Source: a virus | Taxonomy: Duplodnaviria; Caudoviricetes | IMG/VR virus record: IMGVR_UViG_3300031524_000008 | Coordinates: 614-64,613 of that record | DNA: 64,000 bases | Strand: one strand, 5' to 3' | Part shown: positions 13,153 to 33,621 of the stretch, one piece after another | Layout: each line of letters begins with the position of its first letter | How positions within the stretch are numbered: position 1 is the first letter of the stretch | The notes under the pieces: model-generated | Seen by the model: only the letters and a program-made list of their open reading frames with translations | Databases searched by the model: none | What the model was told of the DNA's origin: nothing | Program-made: the position numbers and the translations under genes

Positions 13153-13371
13153 GAGAGTAGTTTTAGCAGAATTTTGAGTTGTGTCAACAAATATTATGCC
13201 GGATATGAAATCGCGTGCATCGCCTTCCACTGAGTAATCATAGCGAATGCGAACTCTTCCAACGATACGCTGCCATCAAGTATGTGACTGCGGAGTTGAG
13301 GATTACGCCTCATATTGCCATCAATGATTTGTTTAATATCTTGTTCGAGCGATTGTGTTTTATTCATATTT

Positions 13372-18011: not shown

Positions 18012-18470
18012 TTATTGCTCCCAAGGGAAGACCTTGAAGGGTACGGGTTTAGTTTTGATTGGCGAAACGTTCTTGAGATTTCCAATAGTAATATGGAATG
18101 GGCAACGAGGACGAGGAGGCAAGCCAAGCTCTACGCGAATTTCTTCAAGACGAGGGCATTTCACCACAAGCCAAAAATAAATATCGCTGCTACGAATCTC
18201 CGGGTCATACTCAAAAGGAATCACTTCCCCTTGATATTTTCGCCAAACAGATTCGTTCTTAGGGCGCTCGTATTTGCATACGGTGACGTGAGCTTGCCAG
18301 ATTGGGGTGTTCAAATTAACACGCAATTCACGCCGCACCCAAGCTTGATAATATTGAATTATCGAGTCGGGCGCGGTCAGCTTGCACGCCCACGAAACTT
18401 CCTTGCGAGCCTTGAAATTAGCCCGCATAGGAGTTGGGTTGTAGATGAGTTTTCCGGTTGCGTTGAACAT
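18012..18470 (-). CDS. 2H phosphoesterase (two HxT motifs)
   Basis: AHVTV and FHITI about 65 aa apart in 152 aa. Confidence 0.75.
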   Translation of the reverse strand: MFNATGKLIYNPTPMRANFKARKEVSWACKLTAPDSIIQYYQAWVRRELRVNLNTPIWQAHVTVCKYERPKNESVWRKYQGEVIPFEYDPEIRSSDIYFWLVVKCPRLEEIRVELGLPPRPRCPFHITIGNLKNVSPIKTKPVPFKVFPWEQ

Positions 18471-20130: not shown

Positions 20131-20819
20131 GGGTTATATATGTATCCCCTATCTTCTCCATCCTCAATCAGACGGATGCTGCAATTCTTGGGATTTGGTT
20201 CTTTTTCAAACCATTCAGGAGATAGGTGCAACCATTGCATTACAAATGCCCTAATACTCAAACCATGGGCGACCACCACGATTGTATTAATATCATGCTT
20301 CTTAGCGTCACGGTGAAACGTGCCGAAACACTGATGGACTCGTAATGCTACATCGAAGCGACTCTCACCCAATGGCATACGCGCCCAAAACCTACCCTCG
20401 AAGTCTTCCTGCTTTTTGTAATGAGCGTACTCATTTGGGTATTTATGTTGGATTTCACTAAGCTGACCTTCGTGAGACATACCATCGAACAATCCAAACT
20501 GTTGCTCAACCAGATGAATGTTCTCGCGGACATCATTAATACGGCTACATTTTGAACGTATTAGCTCGGCGGTTTGACGGGCTCGCTTATATGGGCTAAC
20601 CCACATACGAATATGGTCATAGCTATTTATAAAATCTCTTGGATGGTACGGGTCATAGTTACCCCTAATCATAAAGAAGTCACGAAGAAACCGACCCGCT
20701 TCAAACGCTTGGTCTTCTCCCTTACAAGATAGACCGATAGCATGGTCCGCAGTTGTAGTGTGAACCAGTTTGTTCTGGTTAGCTTCGGACTCGCCGTGAC
20801 GTACTAATAGGATTTTCAT
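20127..20819 (-). CDS. histidine phosphatase (phosphoglycerate mutase family)
   Basis: LVRHGES, SPYKRARQT, GES, VAHG. Confidence 0.92.
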   Translation of the reverse strand: MKILLVRHGESEANQNKLVHTTTADHAIGLSCKGEDQAFEAGRFLRDFFMIRGNYDPYHPRDFINSYDHIRMWVSPYKRARQTAELIRSKCSRINDVRENIHLVEQQFGLFDGMSHEGQLSEIQHKYPNEYAHYKKQEDFEGRFWARMPLGESRFDVALRVHQCFGTFHRDAKKHDINTIVVVAHGLSIRAFVMQWLHLSPEWFEKEPNPKNCSIRLIEDGEDRGYIYNP

Positions 20820-22060
20820 ATGAGGTTGTATCCTCCGGTCTTCTTTTCCAACTCGAAGTTACGGTCGATGAAATTGATAACCTCCTGCGGGTCTATATCG
20901 CGATTGAACACGATGTTAGGACCGTGCCTATCAAGATAGACAGCTTTCAAGTTACCAAACTGCGCCAAGCCGCTTGAGGTATTCTTACCGCACTCGTGGC
21001 TACCGCACTCCACTTCGCGCTGTGAGCGAATAGGAATTGCATCAGGAGCGTCAGACTTGAGCGGAGAATGGAAGTGTACGATACAATCCATACCTTCATG
21101 CTCTCTAAATACTCTGCGTTGCGACTGCCCACCAACAGAAGGCTTCGCGCCATAAGCAATAACAGTATCGGGACCATCGGTTACGACCTTTACAAGGCCA
21201 ACCTTATCCAAATCATTAAAGTTACTCTTACGGATACTGGTAAGGAATGTATTATCGTTTACCTTGACAGCGAAGTGTCCGACCGTAGAGTTATTGAATG
21301 GCTTGTAAGCCCTTCGTGAGATACAATAATCGACTACGTTACGAAGTGACGAAGGTACTTCTGGAGAATTCCAAGGCACTGCTTCGCCAGCGACAACGGT
21401 TGACTGTGTAAACGTCAAGTGGCTACGGAGCCACGCCATTTCAACAAGGCCAGCCAAAACTTCATCTCTGTCTTGAGTTTCATGGTATGCTGCTTCCTCG
21501 GGGGTAATGACCATGTTCCAGCATGTTTTTACGTCGTTGACCAACACAAGGTTAGAGCTAGAAGTTTTAAGAAGCTTCAACCCTTTTAGGTACATTTCTT
21601 CCCTACTAGCACCACTGGTGGTCTTGAAAGATACGAGGAAAATATCTTTGCGGGTCTTACGGATACTATTTACGACCTTCGCGGTGGGGCGCAAATCCAT
21701 AAGATAATTGCTATCAGAACCCAATCGAGGTTCATATTTACCGCTGTTACTTATCCCAAGAGTTCCTTCGAAATCCACCATAGCTACGTTAAAGAAAACA
21801 ATCTTCGTGAGAGGATTGGCGATAACTTCTTTCACACGTTCCGCAACGTTATCATTTGTCACGAGCTTGGAACTGGCATCTGCCATTTTGGTTAAATGCA
21901 AAACAGCGGTCAAATTTCTGTATTTGACCTCTGACTCAAAAAGGTTGACAATACTCCTTGCCGTGCTTCCGAACGCTGGTGCGGCCAGAGCAAGGTGCGT
22001 ACGAACATATGAGAATGTACCGCCTCCGAAAATGTGGACCTGTTTGTTGAGCTTATTCAT
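20816..22060 (-). CDS. CoaB-like (PPC synthetase) domain fused to a class II aldolase/adducin domain
   Basis: GGGT, AMVDF, PTAKV, LVSFK, LVND; C-terminal FLTS, KPS, IVHFH, HG. Confidence 0.65.
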   Translation of the reverse strand: MNKLNKQVHIFGGGTFSYVRTHLALAAPAFGSTARSIVNLFESEVKYRNLTAVLHLTKMADASSKLVTNDNVAERVKEVIANPLTKIVFFNVAMVDFEGTLGISNSGKYEPRLGSDSNYLMDLRPTAKVVNSIRKTRKDIFLVSFKTTSGASREEMYLKGLKLLKTSSSNLVLVNDVKTCWNMVITPEEAAYHETQDRDEVLAGLVEMAWLRSHLTFTQSTVVAGEAVPWNSPEVPSSLRNVVDYCISRRAYKPFNNSTVGHFAVKVNDNTFLTSIRKSNFNDLDKVGLVKVVTDGPDTVIAYGAKPSVGGQSQRRVFREHEGMDCIVHFHSPLKSDAPDAIPIRSQREVECGSHECGKNTSSGLAQFGNLKAVYLDRHGPNIVFNRDIDPQEVINFIDRNFELEKKTGGYNLI

Positions 22061-22554
22061 CTGTGATATATTGTGAATTCCACTTTAGGACACTTTTTTA
22101 ATTCTGCAAGCAAAAACGGTTGCAAAAGTTCTTTGTATCCAGCTTCCGAATCAGCGGGCCAGTAATCACCCCACTGCGTAAACTCCGCTCCTCTCCCTCC
22201 ATTCTTAGAGCCGATACGTGGAAGTGCCACGCTATGAACAGGTAGCCGACCATCCGTTATAGAATTTATCAGATTCCGTATGGAAATCTTAGCCCACGGC
22301 AAACGAATCCGATGGCGAAAATTGTTTTTTACAGCTAAATTTGCTAGGTAATATTCGCCCTCTTTGTAAATCCAACAGTCACCAACCGCTATTTCTCCTT
22401 CGTTACAAAGCCTTTTGTACTCTTTGTACATTTGTGGATGCCTGTTCTTAAATTCTAAAGCAATACCCGCGCCCATCGCGCCAACACAATTAATTGTATT
22501 AACATAGCAATCATGTTGGTGTTCGAACATATCTCCGTTAACAAATCTGACCAT
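22057..22554 (-). CDS. macro domain ADP-ribosylhydrolase (Poa1p/DarG-like)
   Basis: GDMF, NTINCVGAMGAGIA, ALPRIG. Confidence 0.88.
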   Translation of the reverse strand: MVRFVNGDMFEHQHDCYVNTINCVGAMGAGIALEFKNRHPQMYKEYKRLCNEGEIAVGDCWIYKEGEYYLANLAVKNNFRHRIRLPWAKISIRNLINSITDGRLPVHSVALPRIGSKNGGRGAEFTQWGDYWPADSEAGYKELLQPFLLAELKKCPKVEFTIYHR

Positions 22555-23032
22555 GTTTCCTCCCGTATGATGCTTTCAGAGCGGCGACGATATGAGGCTT
22601 CGGCAGACCTGTTTCGTAAAAGTCTTTAGGCAGCTTCGCTCCGTATATTTCGTGCAAAGCTAAAGCGATAGAGGGGCTGCGAGAAACGCCTGCGCTACAG
22701 TGAACGACAAACCTATCAACGCCAATCGCTATACAATTATCAACGAAACTGATAATTTCATCAGCGTCCGCATCACTAATTGCTTTCACAGTCTTTCCGC
22801 GTACCGCTCCATAGAGTTCCTCATCTGGATATGTAAAACTCTTCTCTTCCTCCATAAACATACAACGTAGAAAAGGAATTTTACGATATTCAATATTGAG
22901 ATGTTCGAGCTTCAAAGGAAGCCCATCGAACCAAGCATAACAAGAAATAATTGCAGACGTATCTGAAATAACGCTGCTGAACGCAGGGTCTTCAAGTACG
23001 TATCTAGGTAATGCGATGGTTTTTAAACTCAT
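22538..23032 (-). CDS. protein tyrosine / dual-specificity phosphatase
   Basis: VHCSAGVSRS (CX5R). Confidence 0.88.
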   Translation of the reverse strand: MSLKTIALPRYVLEDPAFSSVISDTSAIISCYAWFDGLPLKLEHLNIEYRKIPFLRCMFMEEEKSFTYPDEELYGAVRGKTVKAISDADADEIISFVDNCIAIGVDRFVVHCSAGVSRSPSIALALHEIYGAKLPKDFYETGLPKPHIVAALKASYGRKHGQIC

Positions 23033-23035
23033 AAG

Positions 23036-23415
23036 GTGTTAGTTCTTTTAAATCAGCAGCCGTAGCCGCGTTCCTGCTTTATCCCTACATTTGACTGAAC
23101 TTCTTTCGAAGCCCGCAGTTTGCCAACACTGCCGCCTCAACCCGATTCGCATTTAGGACGATTACTATTGAATCTGTTTGAGTTGAACCTAACTTGTAGT
23201 ATTAGCGAGCATCCCGGTTTATCCACTGTAACGTATTACAGCAACCTCTACGTCAGCTTTGTTAATGACTGATTTCGGCCCGTTTGCATTTATGCTCTCC
23301 TATCGTCTCGTCTGGTTACGCGAACTTTCTCACCTTACAGGGCTCTCAGTTTCGTACGGACAACTGGTAACTGCAATGCGCGTAGAGTCGCTTACTGATT
23401 TAAAAGAACTATCAC
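23036..23415 (-). ncRNA. rnpB: RNase P RNA (bacterial type, divergent)
   Basis: long P1 terminal stem; P2 CUCUACG/UGUAGGG; P3; GAGAAAGUUCGCGU pairs with GAACGCGGCUA (P4 with bulged U); P18 GGGCUUC-GAAA-GAAGUUC followed by AGUCAAAUG. Confidence 0.82.
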
Positions 23416-23708
23416 TACTTTACAATGGTTTCTAAATTTGTCAACAGATTTTTTAATTCATCCATCGTCATAGGCTTTTCGAACGCTGGCTCACCATCTT
23501 CAATCCTCTGCACCGTTCTGTCCAATTCGCTATTGAGAAATTTCAGCATCCACTTGCGGTCAAACGTTTTATCGACCATTCCTTTTACCAGAAAACCTAG
23601 CAATTCAGGCTCGACGCCACAATTTTCTATGGTCAGTTTGCGTTTCTTCATCGCTCCCTTAAAATCGTTCAAGAGGATGTTGGAGATTGGTTTAGCGTAG
23701 CTATTCAT
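23415..23708 (-). CDS. small protein resembling the GatB/YqeY helical domain
   Basis: ISNILLNDF...LTIENCGVEPELLGFLV matches my recollection of GatB ANW..GEL...IEE..ITPE.LAELI. Confidence 0.5.
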   Translation of the reverse strand: MNSYAKPISNILLNDFKGAMKKRKLTIENCGVEPELLGFLVKGMVDKTFDRKWMLKFLNSELDRTVQRIEDGEPAFEKPMTMDELKNLLTNLETIVK

Positions 23709-24033
23709 CAAGTTCTTTTCTAGCCGCTTCCTCAGCTTTGGCACGAGTAGAACCTATTAAAGCATACAGGTCATTAGGGTAAAATCCTTCATCTACCGGC
23801 TTGTTACGATGAAAATCCTCAGCTTTATCATGGTGTTTTGGACAAAGTGTTATCCCGTTTTCCTTAACGTAACCTCCTCCAAATATTTCATTTCGGTCTG
23901 TAATATGGTGAACTTCCAAATTTTGGCATTCAGTAATAGGCACCATACAAATTTTACATTTGTGTCCATCACGTTCGTAAACGTGTTTACGAAATCTTTC
24001 TCTGATTTGTCGCTTTGATAATTTCCACGCCAT
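23701..24033 (-). CDS. HNH endonuclease
   Basis: ERDGHKCKIC, LEVHHI, NGITLCPKHH. Confidence 0.88.
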   Translation of the reverse strand: MAWKLSKRQIRERFRKHVYERDGHKCKICMVPITECQNLEVHHITDRNEIFGGGYVKENGITLCPKHHDKAEDFHRNKPVDEGFYPNDLYALIGSTRAKAEEAARKELDE

Positions 24034-24035
24034 AT

Positions 24036-24110
24036 TGGTGCTTCGTTAGGAATTCGAATCCTAATTCTGAGTTTTAGAGACTCGTGTATTACCGATTATA
24101 CGAACGAAGC
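24036..24110 (-). tRNA. amber suppressor tRNA (CUA)
   Basis: cloverleaf, loop CU-CUA-AA, GG D-loop, UUCGA T-loop, encoded CCA. Confidence 0.85.
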
Positions 24111-24111
24111 A

Positions 24112-24552
24112 TTAACTTCTGCAAGTTTTACAGGTATTTTTATTTTTGTCAAGGTAAACTTTTTCGACAAAAGCGTACGTACCTTCAATCAACTGTAACC
24201 CCTTAATCATCCCAAACGGAAACCAGCGCCACGAATTATGTTTGTGCTTTTCAATCCACTGAGGCTCCTCGCCGGGATGTAATTCTAAATGAAACAAAAC
24301 ACAACTCTCGCAATCCGTATCGTAGATGTTATTGCCAAGTTCATTAAGGCGAGCGGGATGCGGCGTAAGACCAGTCTCTTCTTTCAATTCTCGCAAAGCA
24401 ATTTGCAGATGCGTTTCCTCTGGAGAATCCTCGCGACCACCGGGATACTGCCAATAACCACTAAACATTTCAGTATTCGTGCGCTGAGACAAACAAAATA
24501 GACCTCCTCGGGTGAGGATTACAGCGGCAGTTTTTCCTAGGCGGCGTTTCAT
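24112..24552 (-). CDS. Nudix hydrolase
   Basis: PGG...ALRELKEETGL. Confidence 0.9.
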   Translation of the reverse strand: MKRRLGKTAAVILTRGGLFCLSQRTNTEMFSGYWQYPGGREDSPEETHLQIALRELKEETGLTPHPARLNELGNNIYDTDCESCVLFHLELHPGEEPQWIEKHKHNSWRWFPFGMIKGLQLIEGTYAFVEKVYLDKNKNTCKTCRS

Positions 24553-24590
24553 TTTCTCGACTGTACTATTTTTTATCCGAACGTCAAGCG

Positions 24591-25025
24591 TTAATATTTT
24601 AGATTTAAATTAATATTGTCAAAACGTAATTTGAAATACAGCCACGCATTCGCAAGCATATCCATAAAATACGATATAGCGGCGATTGTCCATACTCCGT
24701 GCGATAAAGCGTCAACAGACAGCATACTAAATATCATTAGGTTGCCAAGAGCGAAAGCTAAACCTGCCATATACTTCTTGAATAAGATATTCAACACACC
24801 TAATACTGTCATACTTAGTGCTATTAGGCCAAAAGATATTCTATAGTTGCCATTAAGCATCAAAGCTATTGGGTTGTCCCCATAGAATCTAAGATGAAAA
24901 AATAAAATACCAATGCTCAAAAGCAACATTTTAATCGTATAAAAAGCTCTTAGAGAGTAATACGGACTTTTTACAAAGATATTATACAGTTTTGTGCTCA
25001 TTAGCTTTTTGGGAATAGACTTCAT
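24591..25025 (-). CDS. 4-TM membrane protein
   Basis: four hydrophobic helices. Confidence 0.7.
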   Translation of the reverse strand: MKSIPKKLMSTKLYNIFVKSPYYSLRAFYTIKMLLLSIGILFFHLRFYGDNPIALMLNGNYRISFGLIALSMTVLGVLNILFKKYMAGLAFALGNLMIFSMLSVDALSHGVWTIAAISYFMDMLANAWLYFKLRFDNINLNLKY

Positions 25026-25695
25026 TAATGTCTGTTGAAGTACCTATCCATTGTACTATTCTACCTTGACTATCGAATCTTGGCAATACTCTTATTAAAA
25101 ACCAACGATATTCTCCATCTGAAACTTTTTTAAACCTCGTAACAGTATCAAAAGGAAGACCTTTACTGATTGAGTTTCTCCATTCCGAAGTAATCTTAGG
25201 AACATCATCAGGATAAACAGCTTTAACCCATCCGTCGCCGCGAGCTTGGTCAACATTAATACCAGTATAGTCAAACCATCTTTGATTACAGTAATCAATA
25301 TCTCCAGAGGGGCTAGCTGTCCAAACAATTTGGGGCATATAATCAGCTAAAAACTTGTAATGAACGAGATACTCCTCGTTCTCTTTACGAAGACGCTCTA
25401 GCATCTTTTCTTTTTCAGCAATGAGTGTACGATGTTTTTCAATCTCATTTTTATATTCATCTTCTTTACGCTCAAGTTCATGCCTTATTTCCTCACGATA
25501 GTCAGAACTTTCTTTCATAAACGCAGAGAAATCATCGACGCGTTGTTTCTTACGGCTAACTAATAAACTACCAATTACAGTAACAATAGCTGTTACGGCT
25601 GAATATGCAAATGTATGCCAATCCTCGGGATTTGATTGCCGCGCCGATTCCGAAAGGCTAGAAGCTGCTTCTGCTAAAATATTAATATGCAACAT
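24982..25695 (-). CDS. TM + coiled coil + PAS/PAC domain protein
   Basis: LADYMPQIVW...YCNQRWFDYTG...GW..AVYPDD...DGEYRWF...WIGTSTDI. Confidence 0.85.
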   Translation of the reverse strand: MLHINILAEAASSLSESARQSNPEDWHTFAYSAVTAIVTVIGSLLVSRKKQRVDDFSAFMKESSDYREEIRHELERKEDEYKNEIEKHRTLIAEKEKMLERLRKENEEYLVHYKFLADYMPQIVWTASPSGDIDYCNQRWFDYTGINVDQARGDGWVKAVYPDDVPKITSEWRNSISKGLPFDTVTRFKKVSDGEYRWFLIRVLPRFDSQGRIVQWIGTSTDINEVYSQKANEHKTV

Positions 25696-25696
25696 A

Positions 25697-26089
25697 TTAT
25701 CTTAAAAGCATCTTATCGTATGGTATTCGAAATGTTAACCAACAAACTACGAACATTTCAAATAAGAAGTTTGTAGCGTCCATGTATTGACCTGACGCGA
25801 CATGAGTAAAACCTAGATACCCATAAAGAAAAACATTTAAAGCAGCAAAATAAAAGCTTGCCCAAAAGCTCTCAATAAGAACAGAGATTAGACCAAGAAA
25901 CCCTAAAATTAAAAAGCAAAAAGGCCAAACTCCTTGAGATAAGAAATTTAATGTAGGGTTGGGTACGAGGACTCCGAATAGGAGTTGTATCCCCCACATA
26001 ATCGTACGTAGCGCGTAAATTAATTGTACGCACGCTGGGCCACTTTCAAGAAGAGTGTGGCGTAGGGATTTCAAAATGGTCAAGCGCAT
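25697..26089 (-). CDS. 4-TM membrane protein
   Basis: four hydrophobic helices; GTGTAA-N8-ATG. Confidence 0.7.
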   Translation of the reverse strand: MRLTILKSLRHTLLESGPACVQLIYALRTIMWGIQLLFGVLVPNPTLNFLSQGVWPFCFLILGFLGLISVLIESFWASFYFAALNVFLYGYLGFTHVASGQYMDATNFLFEMFVVCWLTFRIPYDKMLLR

Positions 26090-26130
26090 ACCAACTTTTA
26101 CACTTATACCACTAAGAAATTTGAATTTTA

Positions 26131-26514
26131 TTACTTTTCTATAAATGAGCTATCGTCAAACACCGAAGATTTTTCGTCTTCGTTTTTTGTAGCTACGTCT
26201 TCTGATTCAGGTTTATAAATGTCGAAACCCATAAGTTGACGCTGACCTTCTTCATTAGGTTCAGAAGTCATAATACAAATACGATGGCCTAAAGCCGCCT
26301 CTATGACACCATTAATTAATCCAATTAAACCCAATGTATATTCTTCCTTACCATCGACATCTTGGGTTATTACTTGAATAGTGGGGTGATTAGCAAGGTC
26401 TTCATTGCAGGTGGTATAGACATTAAATAATGTCCAAATTGCTTTGGGGTCCGCTTTGAATGCAGCGTTAAGGGATTCTATGGCGTTACGTACTTGTTCT
26501 TCGGGATTATTCAT
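26131..26514 (-). CDS. hypothetical phage protein
   Basis: CNEDLANHPTIQV, GLIGLING. Confidence 0.7.
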   Translation of the reverse strand: MNNPEEQVRNAIESLNAAFKADPKAIWTLFNVYTTCNEDLANHPTIQVITQDVDGKEEYTLGLIGLINGVIEAALGHRICIMTSEPNEEGQRQLMGFDIYKPESEDVATKNEDEKSSVFDDSSFIEK

Positions 26515-26526
26515 AAATTAAAAATA

Positions 26527-26659
26527 GAACTTAGAGTGAAAGGACAGCTTTACGTTGCCATCGCACTGTTTCGGCTCGTTCAGTTAAATCAATAACCTAC
26601 TTATCTCACCGAATAAGCGTCATATCTATAGGACGCTGTATCTGTTGCACTCTAAGTTC
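26527..26659 (-). ncRNA. putative structured ncRNA, unknown class
   Basis: 12-bp terminal inverted repeat GAACTTAGAGTG plus internal hairpins. Confidence 0.55.
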
Positions 26660-26684
26660 ATGGGCGGCTATAGCCGCAAATTGT

Positions 26685-27098
26685 TTACCCGTTGTTTACA
26701 CCGCTAGGTATAGAAACGGGAGCTACTCCTGATGGCTGATTAATTGTTTCCGCTGTCTGCTTATTACGCGCTTCTACTAAAGCAATTACTTCGGGTGGCG
26801 AAGTAGCTTCTGCACCATTAAGGGACAATAAAGCTTGTTCTTGAAGGATGTTTGGTGCTGCTCCAATTTTAGTTGCTGCGGGCAACGAGGCTTGTTTCTT
26901 TAGTTTCTCGAACTCAGCTTCCAATTCTTGAATAAACGTTTCTTTGGGAGCGGTAGGCTCATTCTTAACAGCTTCATACCGAGTACGCTGGTGAATGACT
27001 TCTTGTTCGAGCTTTTCGAGTTCTAGCGCTAACGAGTGTGCTGCGCTCTTGACTTCACTTAGGAAGCCTTGTACTTTTTGTGTTAGAGGTAGTGACAT
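26685..27098 (-). CDS. hypothetical coiled-coil protein
   Basis: 137-aa ORF. Confidence 0.65.
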   Translation of the reverse strand: MSLPLTQKVQGFLSEVKSAAHSLALELEKLEQEVIHQRTRYEAVKNEPTAPKETFIQELEAEFEKLKKQASLPAATKIGAAPNILQEQALLSLNGAEATSPPEVIALVEARNKQTAETINQPSGVAPVSIPSGVNNG

Positions 27099-27139
27099 AT
27101 GATTGGGTATTCAATGCATTCTACGCTCTATTTTCAGTA

Positions 27140-27322
27140 TTATCCATTTTTTATGCCAACACTGCTATATGAATTTAAAAAAGAATCTTCCTGAATAGGA
27201 AAGATATTTTGAACGCGACGTAACAGAGAGTGCCACTCTTTGCGTTCTTTCTCAATATAAGTAGTATAAGATTGGGGCTCTATTTCCCGTTTTCTTATAA
27301 AAGCCTTCATTATGGTACTCAT
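27140..27322 (-). CDS. hypothetical protein
   Basis: short ORF. Confidence 0.45.
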   Translation of the reverse strand: MSTIMKAFIRKREIEPQSYTTYIEKERKEWHSLLRRVQNIFPIQEDSFLNSYSSVGIKNG

Positions 27323-27398
27323 ATGTGTAGATAGGCATTATTACACTACGCTAAAAAACATGAGAACATGATTCTACTTCAAGGTGTTAGTTTTAAAA

Positions 27399-27475
27399 TG
27401 GAGCCGATATGGGAACTTGCATCCAACATTATCTCGTTTACGAAACGAGCGCATCACTATTTATGCTTTATCGGC
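27399..27475 (-). tRNA. tRNA-Thr(CGU)
   Basis: cloverleaf, loop UUCGUAA. Confidence 0.85.
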
Positions 27476-27508
27476 AAGTGCGCCCCATTGCCATACGCAC
27501 GGTTAAAA

Positions 27509-27673
27509 TTAAATTCTTGGTCCTCTACCTACTACCAATGATACTAGGAACAATACCAAAAACACTACGAACAACAGTTTTGCAATTGATGCTGCGGCTC
27601 CAGCGATTCCTACGAGTCCTAGAAGTCCAGCTAACAAAGCTATAATCAAGAATGTGAGTGCCCAACTTAACAT
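27509..27673 (-). CDS. DUF1328/YtjA-like small membrane protein (54 aa, not in ORF track)
   Basis: [46 protein letters not shown]; SD AAAGGTGG. Confidence 0.85.
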
Positions 27674-27700
27674 AATAATCACCACCTTTCTTACTAACTT

Positions 27701-27886
27701 TTACACTAGTTTGGGAAGGCTATCAAGTTCTTTTCTCCACTCATCTATCTTGCGATAACACGCAGATACATCTAGTTCTGCATCACCGTTCGATTTAGAA
27801 GACAATTTATCCTGAATAGCTTTCTCAAACCTTGCGATATTGTCCTCAAGGTATTTGCGCTGTTTTTCAAGTTTCTTTAATTTCAT
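27701..27886 (-). CDS. hypothetical coiled-coil protein
   Basis: ATG directly follows tRNA CCA. Confidence 0.55.
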   Translation of the reverse strand: MKLKKLEKQRKYLEDNIARFEKAIQDKLSSKSNGDAELDVSACYRKIDEWRKELDSLPKLV

Positions 27887-27887
27887 A

Positions 27888-27962
27888 TGGTAGGCACGGA
27901 GGGATTCGCGCCCTCGACTCACGAGTTAGAAGCTCGGTATGATTTCTGCTTCACCACGCGCC
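27888..27962 (-). tRNA. tRNA-Arg(UCU)
   Basis: loop CUUCUAA. Confidence 0.88.
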
Positions 27963-28025
27963 TAAATTCGATATTTTACCACGCCTCGATTTACACTGCG
28001 TTTCAGCATTGTGAGGGCGCGTTTT

Positions 28026-28099
28026 TGGATGCGGATATTGGTTTCGCGCCAATTCTACTTCTTTCAGAGAGAAGGTTGCTACTATTACAACAATCCGCA
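28026..28099 (-). tRNA. tRNA-Gln(CUG)
   Basis: loop CUCUGAA, U1-A72. Confidence 0.88.
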
Positions 28100-28104
28100 G
28101 TATT

Positions 28105-28179
28105 TGGTATCCATACGGGGAATCGCGCCCCGACTAAAAGTTTAGGAAACTTTTGTGCTATCTGTTACACTATACGGAT
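28105..28179 (-). tRNA. tRNA-Arg(CCU)
   Basis: loop UUCCUAA. Confidence 0.88.
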
Positions 28180-28180
28180 A

Positions 28181-28340
28181 AAATTTACGGAGAATCGCGC
28201 TTTCTTGATATTCGAATTCGGCTCCATACCCGAGGGATGCTGCCCTCTTCCCGCCTCTATGGTTTCTTGACCTATGTGCAGTAAGTCTCAGCGATTCGGA
28301 AACCGGCATCGACGGCCTAGACCTTTTCCGTAAAATTTTT
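28181..28340 (-). ncRNA. putative structured ncRNA, unknown class
   Basis: terminal inverted repeat aaatttacggagaa / ttttccgtaaaattt. Confidence 0.45.
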
Positions 28341-28649
28341 TAATGCTTTAATAGCACTTTCACCTTCGTAAAATCTAGCGTAAGTAAAGTAAGATAGTTC
28401 TTTTACCATCCCAATTACTCCATCGCCTTCTTCTCTAGTATCGACTCTAACAAAGTAAATAACTACTGCTTCTCGGTCGGTATATGGAGAGTTAGTATGT
28501 TTGAACCAAAAGAAATGAAGACCTTCTAATTCTTCGATGGCTTTATCGAAGTCGTACCACTTTGTAACTAATACAGCGGTATTATCAAATTCAAACTCTC
28601 GAACTTTAGTATCGACAAAATTTCCAATCAGAGACTTGTGCCATTTCAT
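28317..28649 (-). CDS. hypothetical protein
   Basis: ORF follows a TTGAC promoter. Confidence 0.65.
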   Translation of the reverse strand: MKWHKSLIGNFVDTKVREFEFDNTAVLVTKWYDFDKAIEELEGLHFFWFKHTNSPYTDREAVVIYFVRVDTREEGDGVIGMVKELSYFTYARFYEGESAIKALKNFTEKV

Positions 28650-28689
28650 ATGTAGATTCTACATTGATTAATGGTCGCGTCAACTAAAT

Positions 28690-28764
28690 TGGTAGCCCGT
28701 TAGGGTTACGCTCCCTATTCAACAGGTTGAAAGCCTGTGGTCCTAACTATTAGACGAACGAGCC
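28690..28764 (-). tRNA. tRNA-Glu(UUC)
   Basis: loop CUUUCAA. Confidence 0.88.
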
Positions 28765-29180
28765 GTCTCATGCTTATCTCTATAATAATTTGGGTCGAAG
28801 TCCTTTAATTCATCAAACAAACTATACGCGCTACCGCAAAGTTTGCCGGTTTCGTGAAGGTATTGCCAGTTGATTTCAGAAAATCCAGCCGCCAGAGAAG
28901 CTTGAATGTATCTTTTTAAGAATCGTACTTTAGATACAGCCTTGTTTTCCTCAGTGGTAAGATACGATTCGTAATGGTGTTTGGTTTCAGACCATTCAGG
29001 ATAATCCTTCATACATTCATCGCATCCGCCGCCGTTGCAGGAAACGTTCTTACATGCTGGACACTTTATACAAACTGTCTCGCACAATTCACAGTACGAC
29101 AAAGGATATTTACCCTTCCACATTTGACGGACGCCAAAAATATTGTCCATAGTTTGGTTAAGGGTGTCAGGATTTAACAT
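28743..29180 (-). CDS. hypothetical Cys-rich zinc-binding protein
   Basis: several CxxC. Confidence 0.7.
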   Translation of the reverse strand: MLNPDTLNQTMDNIFGVRQMWKGKYPLSYCELCETVCIKCPACKNVSCNGGGCDECMKDYPEWSETKHHYESYLTTEENKAVSKVRFLKRYIQASLAAGFSEINWQYLHETGKLCGSAYSLFDELKDFDPNYYRDKHETARSSNS

Positions 29181-29452
29181 TATTTTAATTCAAAATGGTT
29201 AGGCTCGTCGGTATGAAGTATTCTTAAACAAATATTATCTAAGAAAAAGACATCATACCTTATCAGTTTTTGAAATCTTGTTAAGCTATCTTCATACCAG
29301 TTCGGACGTTTTTCTTTTATTGGAGAAGGACTCCAACAAACATTGGTTAATCTAGCGTAGTTTTCTGGACCTAATACCATTGCTACAGGGTCGCACTTAA
29401 AGGCTTTGCGATAACCTACCATAGCCTGATTTAGAGTATCGAGGTCGAACAT
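29180..29452 (-). CDS. hypothetical protein
   Basis: coupled ORF. Confidence 0.6.
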   Translation of the reverse strand: MFDLDTLNQAMVGYRKAFKCDPVAMVLGPENYARLTNVCWSPSPIKEKRPNWYEDSLTRFQKLIRYDVFFLDNICLRILHTDEPNHFELK

Positions 29453-29976
29453 TATGACTTCTTACTGAAATTTGCAATTCCTGTAGCCACCGACATGCCG
29501 CTACAATACATTTGACTCGTGGACAAAAACTCGTTCTTCCATGACCAGTCGTTCATAACGAACTTCGAAAAATCGTCTTCCGATAATTCAAATAGGTCGT
29601 TTGCGCTTAATTTAACCATTTGAATTGCGCGGTTGTAGTCGTCTTCGTGGCTTTCTGGAAATGGAATGTTAAAATTAAACAAAGCGTACTGTTGTTTGGA
29701 ACTAAAGACTACGGGTTTAACGCTCTCTTCTAAGTTTGTTACACTTTCGAGGGTAGTTTGTAGCTCTTCCTTAACAAGAGGTAATACTGTCTTGATACGC
29801 TCTGAAAGAGTCTTCTTTACGCTCTTATAGTATCCTTTAAGGGCATTTGCAAGTAAGTCGTCGTGCGCTTTCTTATTATCAAGAAGAGCTTTTAAAAGGT
29901 CTTCGCGCTTGACCTTTACACGTTGAAAGGTTGAAAATGTTTTAAGGGCTTCGATGTCAGATAATGATGTAGGCAT
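29452..29976 (-). CDS. hypothetical phage protein
   Basis: P.SH..DY.RAI.M...F..FVMNDWSWK. Confidence 0.75.
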   Translation of the reverse strand: MPTSLSDIEALKTFSTFQRVKVKREDLLKALLDNKKAHDDLLANALKGYYKSVKKTLSERIKTVLPLVKEELQTTLESVTNLEESVKPVVFSSKQQYALFNFNIPFPESHEDDYNRAIQMVKLSANDLFELSEDDFSKFVMNDWSWKNEFLSTSQMYCSGMSVATGIANFSKKS

Positions 29977-30022
29977 ATCCTGATATTAGGAAGACTTGAA
30001 TCATTCGTCAACTAAAAAGAAA

Positions 30023-30113
30023 TGGCGGTTCGAGAAGGTAACGCTCCCTATACCGTATTTCAGGTATCAACTGTTTAGCAAACAGTGTTCAACACTTGTT
30101 GAAGACACGAACC
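30023..30113 (-). tRNA. tRNA-Ser(GCU)
   Basis: loop UUGCUAA, long V arm, G73. Confidence 0.85.
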
Positions 30114-30116
30114 AAA

Positions 30117-30207
30117 TGGCGGTGAGCAGAGAACTCGCATCCCAAGCCTGTTTTAGAGGCTCCAGCTAGTTTCCAGCTAGCGTCCATACTTAATGGATTT
30201 ACTCACC
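30117..30207 (-). tRNA. tRNA-Ser(GGA)
   Basis: loop CUGGAAA, long V arm. Confidence 0.85.
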
Positions 30208-30210
30208 AAA

Positions 30211-30302
30211 TGGAGGATAGCTGACGATTTGCACGCCAAACCTGTTTTAGAGGTTCGTTTGGTTTTCGAAACCAACCTCGCGCCTTGACGAGTTAACTAT
30301 CC
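30211..30302 (-). tRNA. tRNA-Ser(CGA)
   Basis: loop UUCGAAA, long V arm. Confidence 0.85.
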
Positions 30303-30305
30303 AAT

Positions 30306-30394
30306 TGGCGGATAACGTAGGTGTCGCTCCCAAAGCCATTGCTGGCTCCCATCGCTTTCAAGGCGAGTCCGAAGGCTGCTTCGGTTCATCATCC
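30306..30394 (-). tRNA. tRNA-Ser(UGA)
   Basis: loop CUUGAAA, long V arm. Confidence 0.85.
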
Positions 30395-30399
30395 AAAAA

Positions 30400-30527
30400 T
30401 GGGAAAACGAACGCAACTAATGCTACCTACTTAAACGTCGGTCTCTTCTGCGCAATCTTCACGCTCATGGACACTGGTTTGTTTTCGGTTTGGACTAGCG
30501 ATACCTTTACGGCTGCGTTCGTTCCCT
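30400..30527 (-). ncRNA. putative structured ncRNA ending in CCA
   Basis: terminal stem GGGAACGAACGCA / UGCGUUCGUUUUCCCA. Confidence 0.55.
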
Positions 30528-30532
30528 AAAAA

Positions 30533-30847
30533 TTATTCGGTAAATGTGATACCGTACTTCCGACCCGCCTTCTTGATACGAGACTTAACCTTCCCTAGGT
30601 CAGATGAAGAGTATTCGCTAGCATTCTTATCTTTGTTAATATAACTCCATGCTGCTCGCACTCGTTCAGCGTTATCAATCGGATACTTGAAATTTGCGGG
30701 GTCTGCGTATTGAGACTTGTTCTTTGGGTATCCTTCTGGAGGAGAGTCGTGTCCAAAGGCGCTCTTACGAGGAAGTTGACCGTTAGAAATCTGATGTTCA
30801 ACGATTAAATCGGAAAGGTCGATTATTTGGTCAGTGTTTGGTCGCAT
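30533..30847 (-). CDS. DUF6582-like protein
   Basis: YADPANFKYPID...VRAAWSYIN; GTGTAA-N9-ATG. Confidence 0.75.
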   Translation of the reverse strand: MRPNTDQIIDLSDLIVEHQISNGQLPRKSAFGHDSPPEGYPKNKSQYADPANFKYPIDNAERVRAAWSYINKDKNASEYSSSDLGKVKSRIKKAGRKYGITFTE

Positions 30848-30890
30848 ATATCTTCTTTACACTAAAAGGTTGCCTAGTTACTGAATTCTT

Positions 30891-31181
30891 TTACTTCGGA
30901 ACCCCTATCATGCCAAGGGCGTTCTTGTTTAGTGCGGAATCGTTTTCCGCACCGTAAACAATTTTCCATGACCAGTCGTTCATAACGTACTTCGAAAGGT
31001 CGTTTGCACTCAATTCCGTTCCCTCTACAATTTCACACGAATCAAATGAACCGTCAACAAAACTAATCTCGGCACGATTTTTGTCGTGAATAAAAATTGA
31101 AGACATCCCCATTTCTTCTTTAGTTATAAAATCTACAATTTGTTGTCTAGTAAATCTAATCATGGATTCATTTTGCACCAC
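30891..31181 (-). CDS. hypothetical protein
   Basis: shares SK.VMNDWSWK with 29452..29976. Confidence 0.55.
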   Translation of the reverse strand: MVQNESMIRFTRQQIVDFITKEEMGMSSIFIHDKNRAEISFVDGSFDSCEIVEGTELSANDLSKYVMNDWSWKIVYGAENDSALNKNALGMIGVPK

Positions 31182-31193
31182 TTGACGTATGAA

Positions 31194-31364
31194 TCAAGCT
31201 ATTTTTTTGTAGATTTGACGGACTTTTTCGATGTCTTTTCGCGTCATTTCAACAGGATTAACAACAGAACTAATAGCAAACAATGCTGCTTCGGCGGTTA
31301 GTTCTTTTTCGTTCCATGATTTAATAGCATTACGAACGAATTCCACCACTTCTTTATTTTTCAT
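31194..31364 (-). CDS. hypothetical protein
   Basis: ATG follows tRNA-Leu CCA. Confidence 0.55.
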   Translation of the reverse strand: MKNKEVVEFVRNAIKSWNEKELTAEAALFAISSVVNPVEMTRKDIEKVRQIYKKIA

Positions 31365-31365
31365 A

Positions 31366-31456
31366 TGGTCCGGTAGGTGAGATTCGCACTCACGTTGTTT
31401 ACCATAAAGGTAAGGCGTTTTGAGTGCCTCGCGTCTCGCTGCTGCGCCACAACCGG
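31366..31456 (-). tRNA. tRNA-Leu(CAA)
   Basis: loop CUCAAAA, long V arm. Confidence 0.87.
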
Positions 31457-31460
31457 AAAA

Positions 31461-31551
31461 TGGTCCTGAAAGTGGGGATTGCACCCACGATGTTTACCGC
31501 TAGGGTAATGCGTTTTAAGTGCATCGCGTCTCGCTACTGCGCCATTTCAGG
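31461..31551 (-). tRNA. tRNA-Leu(UAA)
   Basis: loop CUUAAAA, long V arm. Confidence 0.87.
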
Positions 31552-31553
31552 AT

Positions 31554-31627
31554 TGGTGCCCATGCCGAGCATCGCACTCGGTCCCACAAGTTCTAAGCTT
31601 GTGCGCTCTCTCTTGGCGTACATGGGC
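31554..31627 (-). tRNA. tRNA with UAG (Leu) anticodon and short variable loop
   Basis: loop CUUAGAA, 74 nt. Confidence 0.75.
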
Positions 31628-31632
31628 TAAAG

Positions 31633-31732
31633 TAGAAATCGTAGGAGTCGAACCTACATTACCGAATCTTGTCCACCACGCTAAGTAATATTTCAAATCG
31701 GAACATCCTTTCGGAGCCTTAGCGAAGACTTC
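31633..31732 (-). ncRNA. tRNA-like RNA (T-arm GUAGG-UUCGACU-CCUAC, no CCA)
   Basis: T-arm plus acceptor-like stem; noncanonical body. Confidence 0.5.
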
Positions 31733-31733
31733 A

Positions 31734-31804
31734 TGGAGCCGCTGTCGGGTATTGCGCCCGCTAGACAAGTTTACAAAACTCGGCTTCCTCTTAGGAACAA
31801 CGGC
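31734..31804 (-). tRNA. tRNA-Thr(UGU), short D arm
   Basis: loop UUUGUAA. Confidence 0.8.
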
Positions 31805-31810
31805 ATTAAA

Positions 31811-32026
31811 TTAAGTAATAGGACCAGCTAATCCTGCTGGCGCTGCTGGCATTCCAGTCGAGGGACCGGGGCAATTACCAGCGGAAGGAGAAATAGCGGG
31901 TGTAGGTAACGCTGAAAGTGTGACGGGCGTTCCAATAATCATTGGGTTGCCGCAATACTGGCACTTATCTTCGTGCTTTTTATGTTTTCCTTTGTGTCCG
32001 CAGGTTGGGCAATATTGATGTGTCAT
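31811..32026 (-). CDS. small zinc-ribbon protein with Pro/Ala-rich tail
   Basis: CPTCG...CQYCG; GTGTAA-N8-ATG. Confidence 0.65.
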   Translation of the reverse strand: MTHQYCPTCGHKGKHKKHEDKCQYCGNPMIIGTPVTLSALPTPAISPSAGNCPGPSTGMPAAPAGLAGPIT

Positions 32027-32045
32027 ATTCTCTATTACACAAAAA

Positions 32046-32119
32046 TGGTAGGCACATCGGGATTCGCGCCCGAGATTTCACTTTCGTAGAGTGATGTGAT
32101 GTCTGCTTCACTATGCGCC
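32046..32119 (-). tRNA. tRNA-Arg(ACG)
   Basis: loop CUACGAA. Confidence 0.88.
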
Positions 32120-32339
32120 TAAATTACCTCTCCGTAGGACTCAGCAAGCTATAATTGCCCGCAGCAAACAGATTAGTAAAAAAATTTGAAAGCTTGCTTT
32201 TACGCCAAAGAGAAACCAAGCCTTACCAGTTACGGGGTGCCGGTTAGTTTCGGTGTTGTTCCGCTCAAGTATGGACGAGAAACGGCACCTAGTCTCACTT
32301 TTTAAGGAATTGCTGCCTCTAAGCCAACCCACTTTCAAA

Positions 32340-32422
32340 TGGAGGACGAAGCTGGGAGTCGCACCCATTACGTTATACATCGTTGCGACCAAGTATAACG
32401 GGACACTAGTACCAACCCGCCC
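32340..32422 (-). ncRNA. tRNA-like RNA with extended anticodon-position hairpin
   Basis: CCA end, T-arm, CGUUAUAC/GUAUAACG stem. Confidence 0.5.
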
Positions 32423-32496
32423 ATTAAATGCTGCCACAGCTTGTATAGCTAAGACTACAAGCATAACTTCCCCTTAGTTAGGGCGTGTGGACTGCA

Positions 32497-32571
32497 TGGT
32501 ATCCCATGTCGGTATTGCTCCGACTACTCAGCTTTGGAAGAGCCGCGTGTATCTGTCAACACTTATGAGAC
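32497..32571 (-). tRNA. tRNA-Gly(UCC)
   Basis: loop CUUCCAA. Confidence 0.82.
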
Positions 32572-32575
32572 AAAA

Positions 32576-32651
32576 AGGAGCAGCGCGTAGGGAGTTGCAC
32601 CCTAACATACAGGTTGGAACCCGTCATGCTATCTATTACATCACACACTGC
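32576..32651 (-). tRNA. Gly-like tRNA with 6-nt anticodon loop, CCU end
   Basis: loop UUCCAA, U73. Confidence 0.6.
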
Positions 32652-32654
32652 AAA

Positions 32655-32728
32655 TGGAGCGGCATGTCGGTACTGGCCCGACTTTTTCTGCTTGGAAGGC
32701 AGAGACATTACCTTTATGTTAATGCCGC
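32655..32728 (-). tRNA. tRNA-Gly(UCC)
   Basis: loop CUUCCAA, U73. Confidence 0.82.
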
Positions 32729-32873
32729 AAATGCGGTGCATCCAAATCTATCATGAACAATCGACTCACTAATCTTCTTTTTCTAACCGTTTTGAATGCA
32801 CCGCGTAAAAGAGCTAGGTTGTAAGTTGCAGTACGTCAAGCGCACTTTACATTGCTTACACTACCATCGCTCT

Positions 32874-32950
32874 TGGCTCCTACCCTACGTAACGCTCGTA
32901 GCTGGTCCCGTTTAACAGACGGTCGGTTCGCACTTGCCACCCCGATAGGA
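32874..32950 (-). tRNA. tRNA-Asn(GUU)
   Basis: loop CUGUUAA, G73. Confidence 0.82.
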
Positions 32951-33111
32951 ATATTCAAATTAGGTCCATTCAACCCCTATAGCATCACACTCCTTAGTAA
33001 GGGGAGTAGCGCTTTCGCTGACGGCAGGTTGAACATAGGTGTACATCCTCACGCCCGTTACAAGCGGGCGCTAGTTCCACAGTGTTGCCTTCTATTTATC
33101 CTAACTTGAAA

Positions 33112-33185
33112 TGGTCGAAGCTGGTGGTTACGCTCCACCGTTTGAAGAGTGTCATTCTTCCGTCCTACTATTGGACGAAGCCTCG
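33112..33185 (-). tRNA. tRNA-Val(GAC)
   Basis: loop AUGACAC. Confidence 0.85.
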
Positions 33186-33290
33186 ATTTGCTATCAGCTA
33201 AACCGCCTCCCCTTACAATCGGGTATTTAAGTTCCCCTTTAGCTAGGGATATTTATCGGAAGTAACGCCGCTTTTTTATAACGTGATAAC

Positions 33291-33367: not shown

Positions 33368-33371
33368 AAAA

Positions 33372-33456: not shown

Positions 33457-33460
33457 AAAA

Positions 33461-33533: not shown

Positions 33534-33537
33534 AAAT

Positions 33538-33612: not shown

Positions 33613-33621
33613 TTATGTTTT

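Follow-up and report, generated by a model that had tools for sequence, protein, structure and literature searches.

The stretch of DNA analysed here (referred to below as the window) consists of 64,000 nucleotides (nt) from a virus of the Caudoviricetes (Duplodnaviria), viz. positions 614 to 64,613 of the IMG/VR record IMGVR_UViG_3300031524_000008, which is 64.6 kilobases (kb) long and is rated as about 27% complete. The element with which this work is concerned is a 380-nt RNA resembling that of ribonuclease P (RNase P), the RNA enzyme by which transfer RNAs are trimmed; it lies on the minus strand at positions 23415-23036 and fills the gap between two minus-strand open reading frames (ORFs). 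The upstream one of these ORFs (23415-23744) shows a weak match to GatB_Yqey and the other (22538-23032) a weak match to dual-specificity phosphatases. The 380-nt unit is closed by a 21-nt inverted repeat, in which positions 23036-23056 are 95% complementary to positions 23395-23415, and the ORFs inside it are only short ones of 34, 50 and 58 amino acids (aa), none of them reaching 60 aa. A large array of transfer RNA (tRNA) genes, numbering 24 by ARAGORN and 27 by Rfam, extends over positions 24036-40465, and because all of the tRNA genes in the window are on the minus strand, the RNA is read from this strand and lies downstream of the array, co-oriented with it and 620 nt from the last of the 24 tRNAs. 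These tRNAs are the presumed substrates of the window RNA. An earlier interpretation of this DNA, made from its letters alone (the sequence-only reading), had described the stretch as free of ORFs and situated at the distal end of the tRNA array, and both of these statements agree with the gene map given above.

The sequence-only reading had also proposed that this stretch encodes an RNase P RNA of the phage. The search with the Rfam models RF00010 and RF00011, by which this proposal could be checked most directly, gave no match in the window at E<=10, and taken alone this result would have led to the rejection of the idea. At the gathering thresholds, which for the RNase P models are 100 bits (RF00010), 84 bits (RF00373) and 97 bits (RF00011), the 27 Rfam matches in the window are all to tRNA, and a scan of 701 nt with all of the Rfam models at E<=10 yielded just two chance matches, to unstructured eukaryotic families of long non-coding RNA. 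In control searches with the RNase P models, 11-13 of 14 known genomes were matched (11 of 14 by RF00010). Several other searches were likewise negative. By blastn, the region has no match among 50,697 phage records, the two small flanking proteins have no close relatives in the viral contig collection, and a pattern extending from CR-I to CR-V with a gap of 227-257 nt retrieved no stretches, this gap being too variable in the family described below. Relatives of the ribonucleotide reductase (at least 596 stretches, of which 80 were kept and 30 searched) yielded BLAST chance matches of no more than 20 nt and no RF00010 match in the 30 records, and they were the wrong set of relatives.

The route to the relatives of the RNA was provided by a 414-aa protein encoded at positions 20816-22060, 1 kb downstream of it, which has more than 3,000 relatives, many of them on contigs of 200-570 kb, and which shares 57.5% identity with part of the 595-kb record of an uncultured phage. 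An alignment of 27 relatives of this protein led to the retrieval of 80 viral loci, and a BLAST search of the RNA against 50 of these 80 records gave only weak short matches. The lead to the family was one 40-nt match of this kind (75% identity; E 0.13, which is not significant by itself), extending from J18/2 to P4, in the record G032. At the G032 locus, a 229-nt segment matches the archaeal model RF00373 with 44.3 bits (E 1.1e-9 to 1.1e-12), which is below the 84-bit threshold, and the RNA is found within a tRNA array, 2 nt ahead of a tRNA. The RNAs from the window and G032 are colinear in every conserved block, and the helices P4, P2, P5 and P16 differ between them by compensatory changes; in P4, for example, the window has GUUCGCGU/ACGCGGC and G032 has GUUCAGAA/UUCUGGC. 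A strict pattern (AGTCAAATG..GGCTACGG), which was also tried, was discarded, as 49 of its 50 loci are chance matches and the remaining one is the G032 contig.

A model (R1) for which the G032 RNA was the only source has its best match in the window at the RNA locus (20.8 bits, E 5e-4), the next match scoring 9.3 bits; it should be noted that the E-values of R1, as well as those of the model R2 described below, are rough owing to a shortened calibration. In the 50 records R1 identified seven further RNAs (E 4e-13 to 4e-6), and it gave no match in 28 more distant records reached through the 414-aa protein. Four of the seven further relatives are matched by RF00010 with 41-53 bits, and one of them aligns to RF00010 in its catalytic domain, with about 140 positions of the specificity domain spanned by about 50 nt. 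A 35-nt degenerate pattern based on the 3' module of these RNAs matched at least 117 stretches in IMG/VR, and R1 matches 76 of the 79 new loci derived from this pattern at E<0.01. The family comprises at least 76 IMG/VR loci, and direct terminal repeats together with a completeness rating of 100% are found for at least seven of the records carrying it. The second model, R2, was built from 34 shorter members (alignment A7) with the window excluded. A model could not be based on the two preceding alignments, A5 and A6, whose widths of 570 and 428 columns were too great, and A7 was obtained by leaving out L300 and L289, the two rows with the largest contributions of insertion columns. R2 has a single match in the 64 kb, at positions 23051-23362 (40.5 bits, E 3.1e-9), and after removal of the 3' module from the sequence searched it still matches positions 23134-23342 (40.1 bits, E 2.6e-9), in an alignment that spans CR-I, P5, the small module replacing the specificity domain (S-module), J5/15, P15, P16 and the GGGUU loop.

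As the Rfam models miss the window RNA itself, its link to cellular RNase P needs both the intermediates and the family model. R2 matches 11 of 12 cellular rnpB loci, that of E. coli being the one not matched, and its highest scores (69-81 bits) are for class A genes in the sampled contigs of Bacteroidales/Bacteroidota. The 3'-module pattern derived from the phage RNAs is also found in at least 120 bacterial contigs, and 12 of the 18 that were sampled have a full rnpB above the threshold at that place. Further, the RF00010 threshold is reached by none of 48 phage records, seven of which have sub-threshold scores of 49-72 bits, and the phage copies are therefore not host genes located in the flanks of proviruses. 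Together with the covariation, the genomic context and the contigs from RNA libraries considered below, this transitive homology supports the assignment of the window RNA to a large family of predicted RNase P RNAs from huge phages with a reduced specificity domain, in agreement with the central proposal of the sequence-only reading.

The structure of the window RNA was set out by homology and its pairs were then checked. RNA position 1 corresponds to window position 23415, and all of the elements described here are on the minus strand (RNA positions are given first, followed by those in the window). The alignments of the full window RNA to R1 and R2 misplace the 5' strands of P1, P2 and P3, because the P3 of the window is long, and these strands were set by eye with the help of a 15-nt identity (UAAGCGACUCUACGC) common to the locus L332 and by checking of the pairs. 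The helices thus assigned, viz. an outer extension of P1, P1, P2, P3, P4, P5, Sa, Sb, P15, P16, an extra hairpin and P18, consist of standard pairs throughout, the sole exception being one A-A in the outer stem. The two arms of the outer extension (1-14, 23402-23415; 367-380, 23036-23049) probably form a stem that belongs to the precursor or serves in processing and that the mature RNA lacks. In P1, the 5' strand containing the family-conserved UAAGCG (15-27, 23389-23401) pairs with CGGCUGCUGAUUU (354-366, 23050-23062), and in P2 CUCUAC (29-34, 23382-23387) pairs with GUAGGG (328-333, 23083-23088). The P3 arm (36-85, 23331-23380), whose stem is formed by RNA 36-45 and 76-85, is extended by an internal loop and a second helix, and it is about 50 nt in length in comparison to 15-20 nt in the relatives. 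These three helices are nested around the core, as is the case in class A RNAs. The strand comprising CR-I, J3/4 and the 5' side of P4, GAGAAAGUUCGCGU (85-98, 23318-23331), contains the bulged U92 (window 23324), and the 3' side of P4 together with CR-V is formed by AACGCGGCUACG (345-356, 23060-23071). In the P4 pseudoknot A90-U98 pairs with A345-U352, and the pairing of GAGAAAGUUCGCGU with AACGCGGCU comprises eight pairs with U92 bulged; the motifs GAGAAAGUUCGCG and AACGCGGCUAC are found at RNA 85-97 and 344-354, respectively.

The helix P5, in which AACC (99-102, 23314-23317) pairs with GGUU (227-230, 23186-23189), leads into the reduced specificity-domain region (103-226, 23190-23313), which contains helix Sa (UAG/CUA), GGAG, helix Sb (GAGCAU/AUGCUC) and the conserved CGCUAAUAC. 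The small S-module of the family (helix Sa, GGAG, hairpin Sb and CGYUAAUAC) is present in the window as UAGGAG-AGCAU...AUGCU-CGCUAAUACUAC. However, the Sb hairpin of the window contains an insertion of 79 nt (125-203, 23213-23291), which holds a CUGUAA-UACG-UUACAG hairpin and for which no counterpart of similar size was found among the relatives examined. A full specificity domain, i.e. P7-P14 with CR-II and CR-III, is not found, and the window has in its place the small Sa/Sb module with its insertion. The next segment (231-280, 23136-23185) consists of J5/15 (CAA), P15 (CUC/GAG), the internal loop AAACA/GGGUU and P16 (GAUUC/GAAUC), and is read in the R2 alignment as CAA, CUC-AAACA-GAUUC ... 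GAAUC-GGGUU-GAG. The GGU loop of class A RNase P RNA pairs with the 3'-CCA of tRNA; in the window RNA this loop, GGGUU (273-277, 23139-23143), is the predicted CCA-pairing site, and a 3'-CCA is encoded in all 24 of the 24 tRNA genes of the window. An extra hairpin, A (GCAGU/ACUGC; 284-301, 23115-23132), similar to hairpins seen in some relatives, is succeeded by a P18-like hairpin with a GAAA tetraloop (GGCUUC-GAAA-GAAGUU; 303-318, 23098-23113), which directly precedes J18/2 and is of a kind that only some relatives have. The last segment (320-344, 23072-23096) is made up of J18/2 (AGUCAAAUG), the 3' strand of P2 and J2/4 (AUAAAGCAGGA), and constitutes the CR-IV region. Every helix that the sequence-only reading had named, viz. 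P1, P2, P3, P4 with its bulged U and a GNRA-capped P18, is therefore standard-paired, and the divergence which it had remarked upon in the specificity domain corresponds to a small conserved module with a 79-nt insertion, where the bacterial P7-P14 are absent.

Covariation was counted on 67 members of the family aligned to R1, to which P4 was added as a pseudoknot absent from the model; an alignment that is fitted to the helices of R1 favours those helices, but P4 and Sa are outside the model and are not affected by this. Standard pairs are found in 94.1% of the cells as compared to 59.1% in shuffles, with none of 500 shuffles reaching the observed value, and when the partners are slid only 35-45% of the cells are paired. 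The cells that have changed on both sides number 998, versus 280 in shuffles. For P4, 95.6% of the cells are paired across the family and both-side changes are seen in 5 of its 7 pairs. In helices 1-4 the paired fraction is 88-99%, and helix Sa, which is not encoded in the model, is 85.8% paired in comparison to 68.8%; Sb (helix 7) is also among the helices counted. As the compensatory changes run across the family, they point to selection on the structure. The fold of the minus strand by itself is weak evidence (z -2.56 relative to shuffles, with 1 of 100 shuffles equally good), and it is due to the homology and the covariation that the window RNA can be regarded as more than a chance look-alike.

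The consensus of the family includes GAGGAA(G/A)U(U/C)C, GCAA-CCAAACAG, CGGGUUGG, AGAUAAAUG, AUARAACAGAA and GGCUACGG, and the GGU loop is conserved across it. The window departs from this consensus in GAGAAA, AGUCAAAUG and AAAGCAGGAA, each of which recurs in other members. Judged from these alignments, the predicted class A catalytic domain is kept by the family, with P1-P5, P4 with its bulged U, CR-I, CR-IV, CR-V, J5/15, the GGU of P15 and often P18, and the specificity domain of about 140 nt is swapped for a small conserved module consisting of helix Sa, GGAG, hairpin Sb and CGUUAAUAC. A scan of metagenomes for the subgroup to which the window RNA belongs retrieved only three stretches, viz. 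the G032 contig, the G032-like L500, and L498, and no close relative of the large form seen in the window is among them. In the metagenome copy L500:1558-1769 (-), which is near to the G032 RNA, the 5' strand of P4 resembles that of L288 (GUUCGCGCC) and its 3' strand is as in G032 (UUCUGGC). The P4 of this copy would mispair, and the copy may be a recombinant, inactive, or an assembly chimera.

Evidence of a different kind comes from sequencing libraries. Words sampled from window positions 22800-23700 (901 nt) are present at fractions of 0.64-1.00 in eighteen DNA runs from peat metagenomes and at fractions of 0.30-0.37 in six peat metatranscriptome runs, the RNA accounting for 0.42 of this stretch. 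The contigs from four RNA runs, belonging to four studies, were compared with window positions 22400-24200 (1801 bases), and they have no differing letters and a depth of 23-55. These contigs extend over positions 23049-23394, 23047-23392 (where Illumina adapter follows), 23085-23392 and 23050-23404 (permuted). Their cover within the 1801 bases is limited to positions 23047-23404, save for one contig of low depth (23940-24101) over the tRNA with a CUA anticodon, and the flanking ORFs have no RNA-library contig in this interval in the four runs. At the lower side the contigs end at positions 23047-23050, which is where the family-type P1 terminates (23050), and the upper ends fall at RNA positions 12 and 22-24. 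These observations are probably explained by an RNA that is discrete and stable, measures about 346-358 nt (RNA ~12-24 to 366-369) and is without the outer stem. The permuted contig (run X19, depth 55), which was seen in one of the four runs, joins position 23404 to 23050, i.e. RNA 366 to 12, giving a circle of 355 nt, and it could represent a circular RNA, template switching at paired ends, or some other artefact. As a separate observation, an RNA ligase of the Rnl1 type is encoded by the phage at positions 48266-49468.

The locations of the other family members are also informative. Among 84 R1 matches, some of which are in near-identical contigs, a same-strand tRNA is present in the locus in 61, and the nearest such tRNA is within 20 nt in 21 of these 61 and within 1 kb in 43. 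The tRNAs in the family loci include 533 on the same strand versus 1 on the opposite strand. A transfer-messenger RNA (tmRNA) gene, co-oriented with the RNase P-like RNA and with the tRNAs, is found in the same locus in 6 of 60 cases scanned (L264, L266, L270, L276, L309 and L311). The members differ in the extent to which their flanks are complementary beyond P1: for those without an adjacent tRNA, the median is 5 extra pairs versus 3 for those with one, and at least 8 flank pairs are present in 11 of 43 of the former versus 0 of 19 of the latter (one-sided Mann-Whitney p 0.002 and Fisher p 0.011, calculated on sequences that are related and hence non-independent). The flank stem of the window RNA, with 13 pairs, is joint longest in the family. 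This distribution suggests two routes by which these RNAs are released from the transcript, viz. by the processing of neighbouring tRNAs or, as in the window, by cleavage in an extended terminal stem.

Based on these results, we consider it likely that the window RNA is a working RNase P RNA, which would remove the 5' leaders of the phage tRNAs, probably in association with the RnpA protein of the host. In the sequence of events envisaged, the RNA would be cut from a longer transcript or made from a promoter of its own, and the outer 11-14 base pairs (bp) of the terminal helix would be trimmed to give an RNA of about 355 nt whose P1, with 7+5 bp, is like that of the relatives. This RNA would then cleave the 5' leaders of the phage pre-tRNAs, and its GGU loop can pair with the 3'-CCA that these encode. 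A promoter-like match of the sigma-70 type (TTGACA, 16 nt, TAAAGT) is present on the minus strand at positions 23417-23444, ending 2 nt upstream of the unit; it is a lead only, and sites of this type are not enriched near the unit (2 found in the region vs 2.8 expected from shuffles). The RNA would probably act with host RnpA, since the gene for this protein, rnpA, is not found in the record and is present in only 2 of 30 relatives. The search for rnpA (PF00825) gave no match at E<=1 in the 64.6-kb record, and the earlier statement that the window lacks this gene holds for the whole of the record, to which, as it represents about 27% of the genome, this negative result applies. Both of the RNA-carrying records with an rnpA homologue are among the 14 (of the 30) that are rated at least 90% complete. 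These homologues, L376:1378-1818 (+) and L377:1498-1797 (-), match PF00825 with about 50 bits, lie in near-complete huge-phage records of about 476 and 508 kb, and have as neighbours proteins without Pfam matches and ClpP, unlike the neighbourhood of bacterial rnpA. These two phages may encode a whole RNase P holoenzyme, and most of the other phages carrying the RNA would depend on host RnpA or on the RNA alone.

A number of points weigh against this interpretation of the window RNA and they should be considered together. None of RF00010, RF00011 and RF00373 has a match at E<=10 in the whole record, and the scores from R1 and R2 are accompanied by roughly calibrated E-values. Most of the members from which R2 was built were gathered by a pattern that was already known to fit the window, for which the search with the 3' module removed serves as a control. 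The J3/4 of the window has GAGAAA instead of the commoner GAGGAA, and its J2/4 has two A-to-G changes, but both of these departures occur elsewhere in the family. The coinciding contig ends in different studies are a weak hint, as contigs cannot prove transcription, ends or abundance; carry-over of DNA into the RNA libraries is formally possible, yet it would not explain why the cover is limited to the RNA. An rnpA gene may lie elsewhere in the genome of this phage. Lastly, the catalytic activity ascribed to the RNA is deduced from conservation, and the supposed benefit, that the maturation of tRNAs would become independent of the host RNase P RNA during the expression of a large array, is a conjecture.

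Among the alternatives, the one that fares best, although we regard it as improbable, is that the RNA is a non-catalytic mimic, a sponge that takes up host RnpA or pre-tRNAs and thereby shuts down or redirects host tRNA maturation. Such a role would be consistent with the loss of most of the specificity domain, with the presence of rnpA in just 2 of 30 relatives, due to which the RNA must meet the host protein, and with the depth of 23-55 in the RNA-library contigs. However, if the RNA were only a sponge, then the parts that show the strongest conservation and covariation, viz. P4 with its bulged U, J3/4, J2/4, J5/15 and GGU, which are those of the catalytic domain, would not be needed so exactly, and the positioning of these RNAs within the tRNA arrays of the phages themselves, often 2-10 nt from a tRNA, fits processing. 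A role as an RNase P-derived cis element of the tRNA operon transcript, for instance in spacing it, stabilising it or giving host nucleases a point of entry, is in our estimation still somewhat less probable. The embedding of the RNAs in polycistronic tRNA arrays could be interpreted in this manner, as could the tendency of members without an adjacent tRNA to have a longer terminal stem, but a spacer would not keep a 190-nt catalytic core and a long-range pseudoknot across at least 76 loci, and in the RNA-library contigs the RNA appears as a discrete species and its flanks do not. That the window holds a decaying fragment of a captured host rnpB, or a chance look-alike, would be in keeping with the lack of an Rfam RNase P match and the modest folding z-score of the single sequence, but this is very improbable in view of the compensatory changes across the family, the sub-threshold scores of all 48 phage copies (none of them being full-length and host-type), the restriction of R2 matches in the window to the RNA locus and the exact agreement of the RNA-library contigs.

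The reading of the window RNA as a phage RNase P RNA also invites comparison with the known groups of this enzyme. With the bacterial class A RNAs (RF00010) it shares the architecture of the catalytic domain and the order of the motifs, viz. P1-P2-P3, CR-I/P4 with a bulged U, P5, J5/15 CAA, P15 GGU, P18 GNRA, J18/2, J2/4 and CR-V. It differs from them in that P7-P14 (about 140 model positions) are reduced to about 50-70 nt in the relatives and to 124 nt in the window, inclusive of the 79-nt insertion. The phage RNAs are, in addition, virus-encoded, located inside tRNA arrays and far below the 100-bit threshold, the window RNA remaining undetected. The archaeal model RF00373 is the one on which the relative G032 scores best (44.3 bits), and it has no match in the window. 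The type T RNase P RNAs of Thermoproteaceae lack the specificity domain, and the phage RNAs are similar to them in keeping the catalytic domain with a drastically reduced specificity domain. However, the phage RNAs, unlike the archaeal and type T forms, keep a small S-module and a GGU loop of the bacterial type, and the similarity in reduction is probably convergent. The RNase P RNAs of plastids and mitochondria are reduced and fast-evolving, are known mainly by CR-I, CR-V and a complementary P4, and are missed by general models. The phage RNAs resemble them in all of these respects, and differ from them in their viral setting and in the retention by the family of P15 GGU and P18. RNase P is viewed as a cellular enzyme of universal occurrence.

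In the literature searched, which consisted largely of abstracts, no report of a virus- or phage-encoded RNase P RNA was found. The work of Al-Shayeb et al. (2020) on translation-related RNA genes of huge phages (PMC7162821) describes a similar setting, in that tRNA arrays and, in some loci, tmRNA are involved, and its main text does not contain the terms 'RNase P', 'ribonuclease P', 'rnpB' or 'ribozyme'. RNase P terms are likewise absent from the main text of a 2026 review of jumbo phages (PMC13282480), and an Rfam screen of megaphage genomes (PMC8172020) reports, in the parts read, only tRNAs and a tmRNA. Phage tRNAs, e.g. those of T4, are described in the corresponding parts of a 2024 review (PMC11143913) as classic substrates of the host RNase P. 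The enzyme is a known one; what appears to be undescribed is that a virus carries it, that its specificity module is miniature and that the family is so large. A family of RNase P RNAs encoded by viruses would extend the translation-related functions carried by huge phages, and its members, natural minimal forms of about 190-250 nt in which the specificity module is small and new, could inform how little RNA is needed for the recognition of substrates. The finding that 0 of 48 phage copies reach the Rfam threshold also indicates a blind spot in annotation.

The sequence-only reading had further stated that the tRNAs of this phage are variant in their elbow, which is the case for 21 of the 24 tRNAs in the window. 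In these, the T-loop starts with N-G-C in place of T-T-C and the D-loop has AG instead of the usual GG. Of the remaining three, two with T-T-C keep GG and one has T-T-A; as both of the T-T-C tRNAs keep GG, the changes in the T-loop and the D-loop go together. However, the suggestion that the RNA is tuned to these variant tRNAs receives no support from the comparison with other loci. The tRNAs beside the same RNA family in other phages have T-T-C in 400 of 437 cases and N-G-C in 11. G032 and L500, which is nearly a copy of it, contain three variant tRNAs, the T-loop is of the usual type in all 7 tRNAs of the subgroup member L498, the loci around the gene for the 414-aa protein have T-T-C in 46 and N-G-C in 2 of their 51 tRNAs, and in the bacterial loci T-T-C is present in 20 of 20 tRNAs. 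Further, the conserved nucleotides of the S-module of the window are also found in relatives with normal tRNAs, and the only peculiarity of the window in this regard is the 79-nt insertion in Sb. The variant elbow is thus striking in this phage, but it does not track the RNA family, and the RNA may be tuned to it, though comparison does not favour this. A broader proposal, which we put forward tentatively and which is more probably wrong than right, is that the miniaturised RNase P lineage of huge phages serves in this phage as a dedicated, perhaps circularised, machine for a set of tRNAs with a rewired elbow, which the RNase P, the modification enzymes or the tRNA-targeting defence nucleases of the host would handle poorly, so that tRNA maturation would become partly orthogonal to that of the host. 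The occurrence in one phage of this RNA together with a nearly complete set of tRNAs with an odd elbow makes the recognition of the elbow by RNase P, a question of long standing, directly testable with natural substrates.

Some other features of the surroundings may be mentioned. An ORF for an HNH endonuclease (positions 23701-24033) is situated after the last tRNA and ahead of the small ORF preceding the RNA. Around the tRNA array there is also a cluster of genes related to RNA repair and ADP-ribose (11890-13230, 18012-18470, 22057-22554, 22538-23032, 24112-24552, 42826-44013 and 48266-49468), which comprises a PARP-like catalytic domain, a 2H phosphoesterase, a macro domain, the phosphatase-like protein, a NUDIX protein, an ATP-dependent DNA ligase and the T4 Rnl1-type RNA ligase. 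For the tRNA at positions 40305-40378 an odd two-base anticodon is called. The tRNA at positions 24036-24110 has the anticodon CUA (amber suppressor; labelled Pyl by ARAGORN), and tRNAs with this anticodon are also present in the relatives L264, L275, L287, L303, L304 and L309. The ORFs of the window stay open under the standard code.

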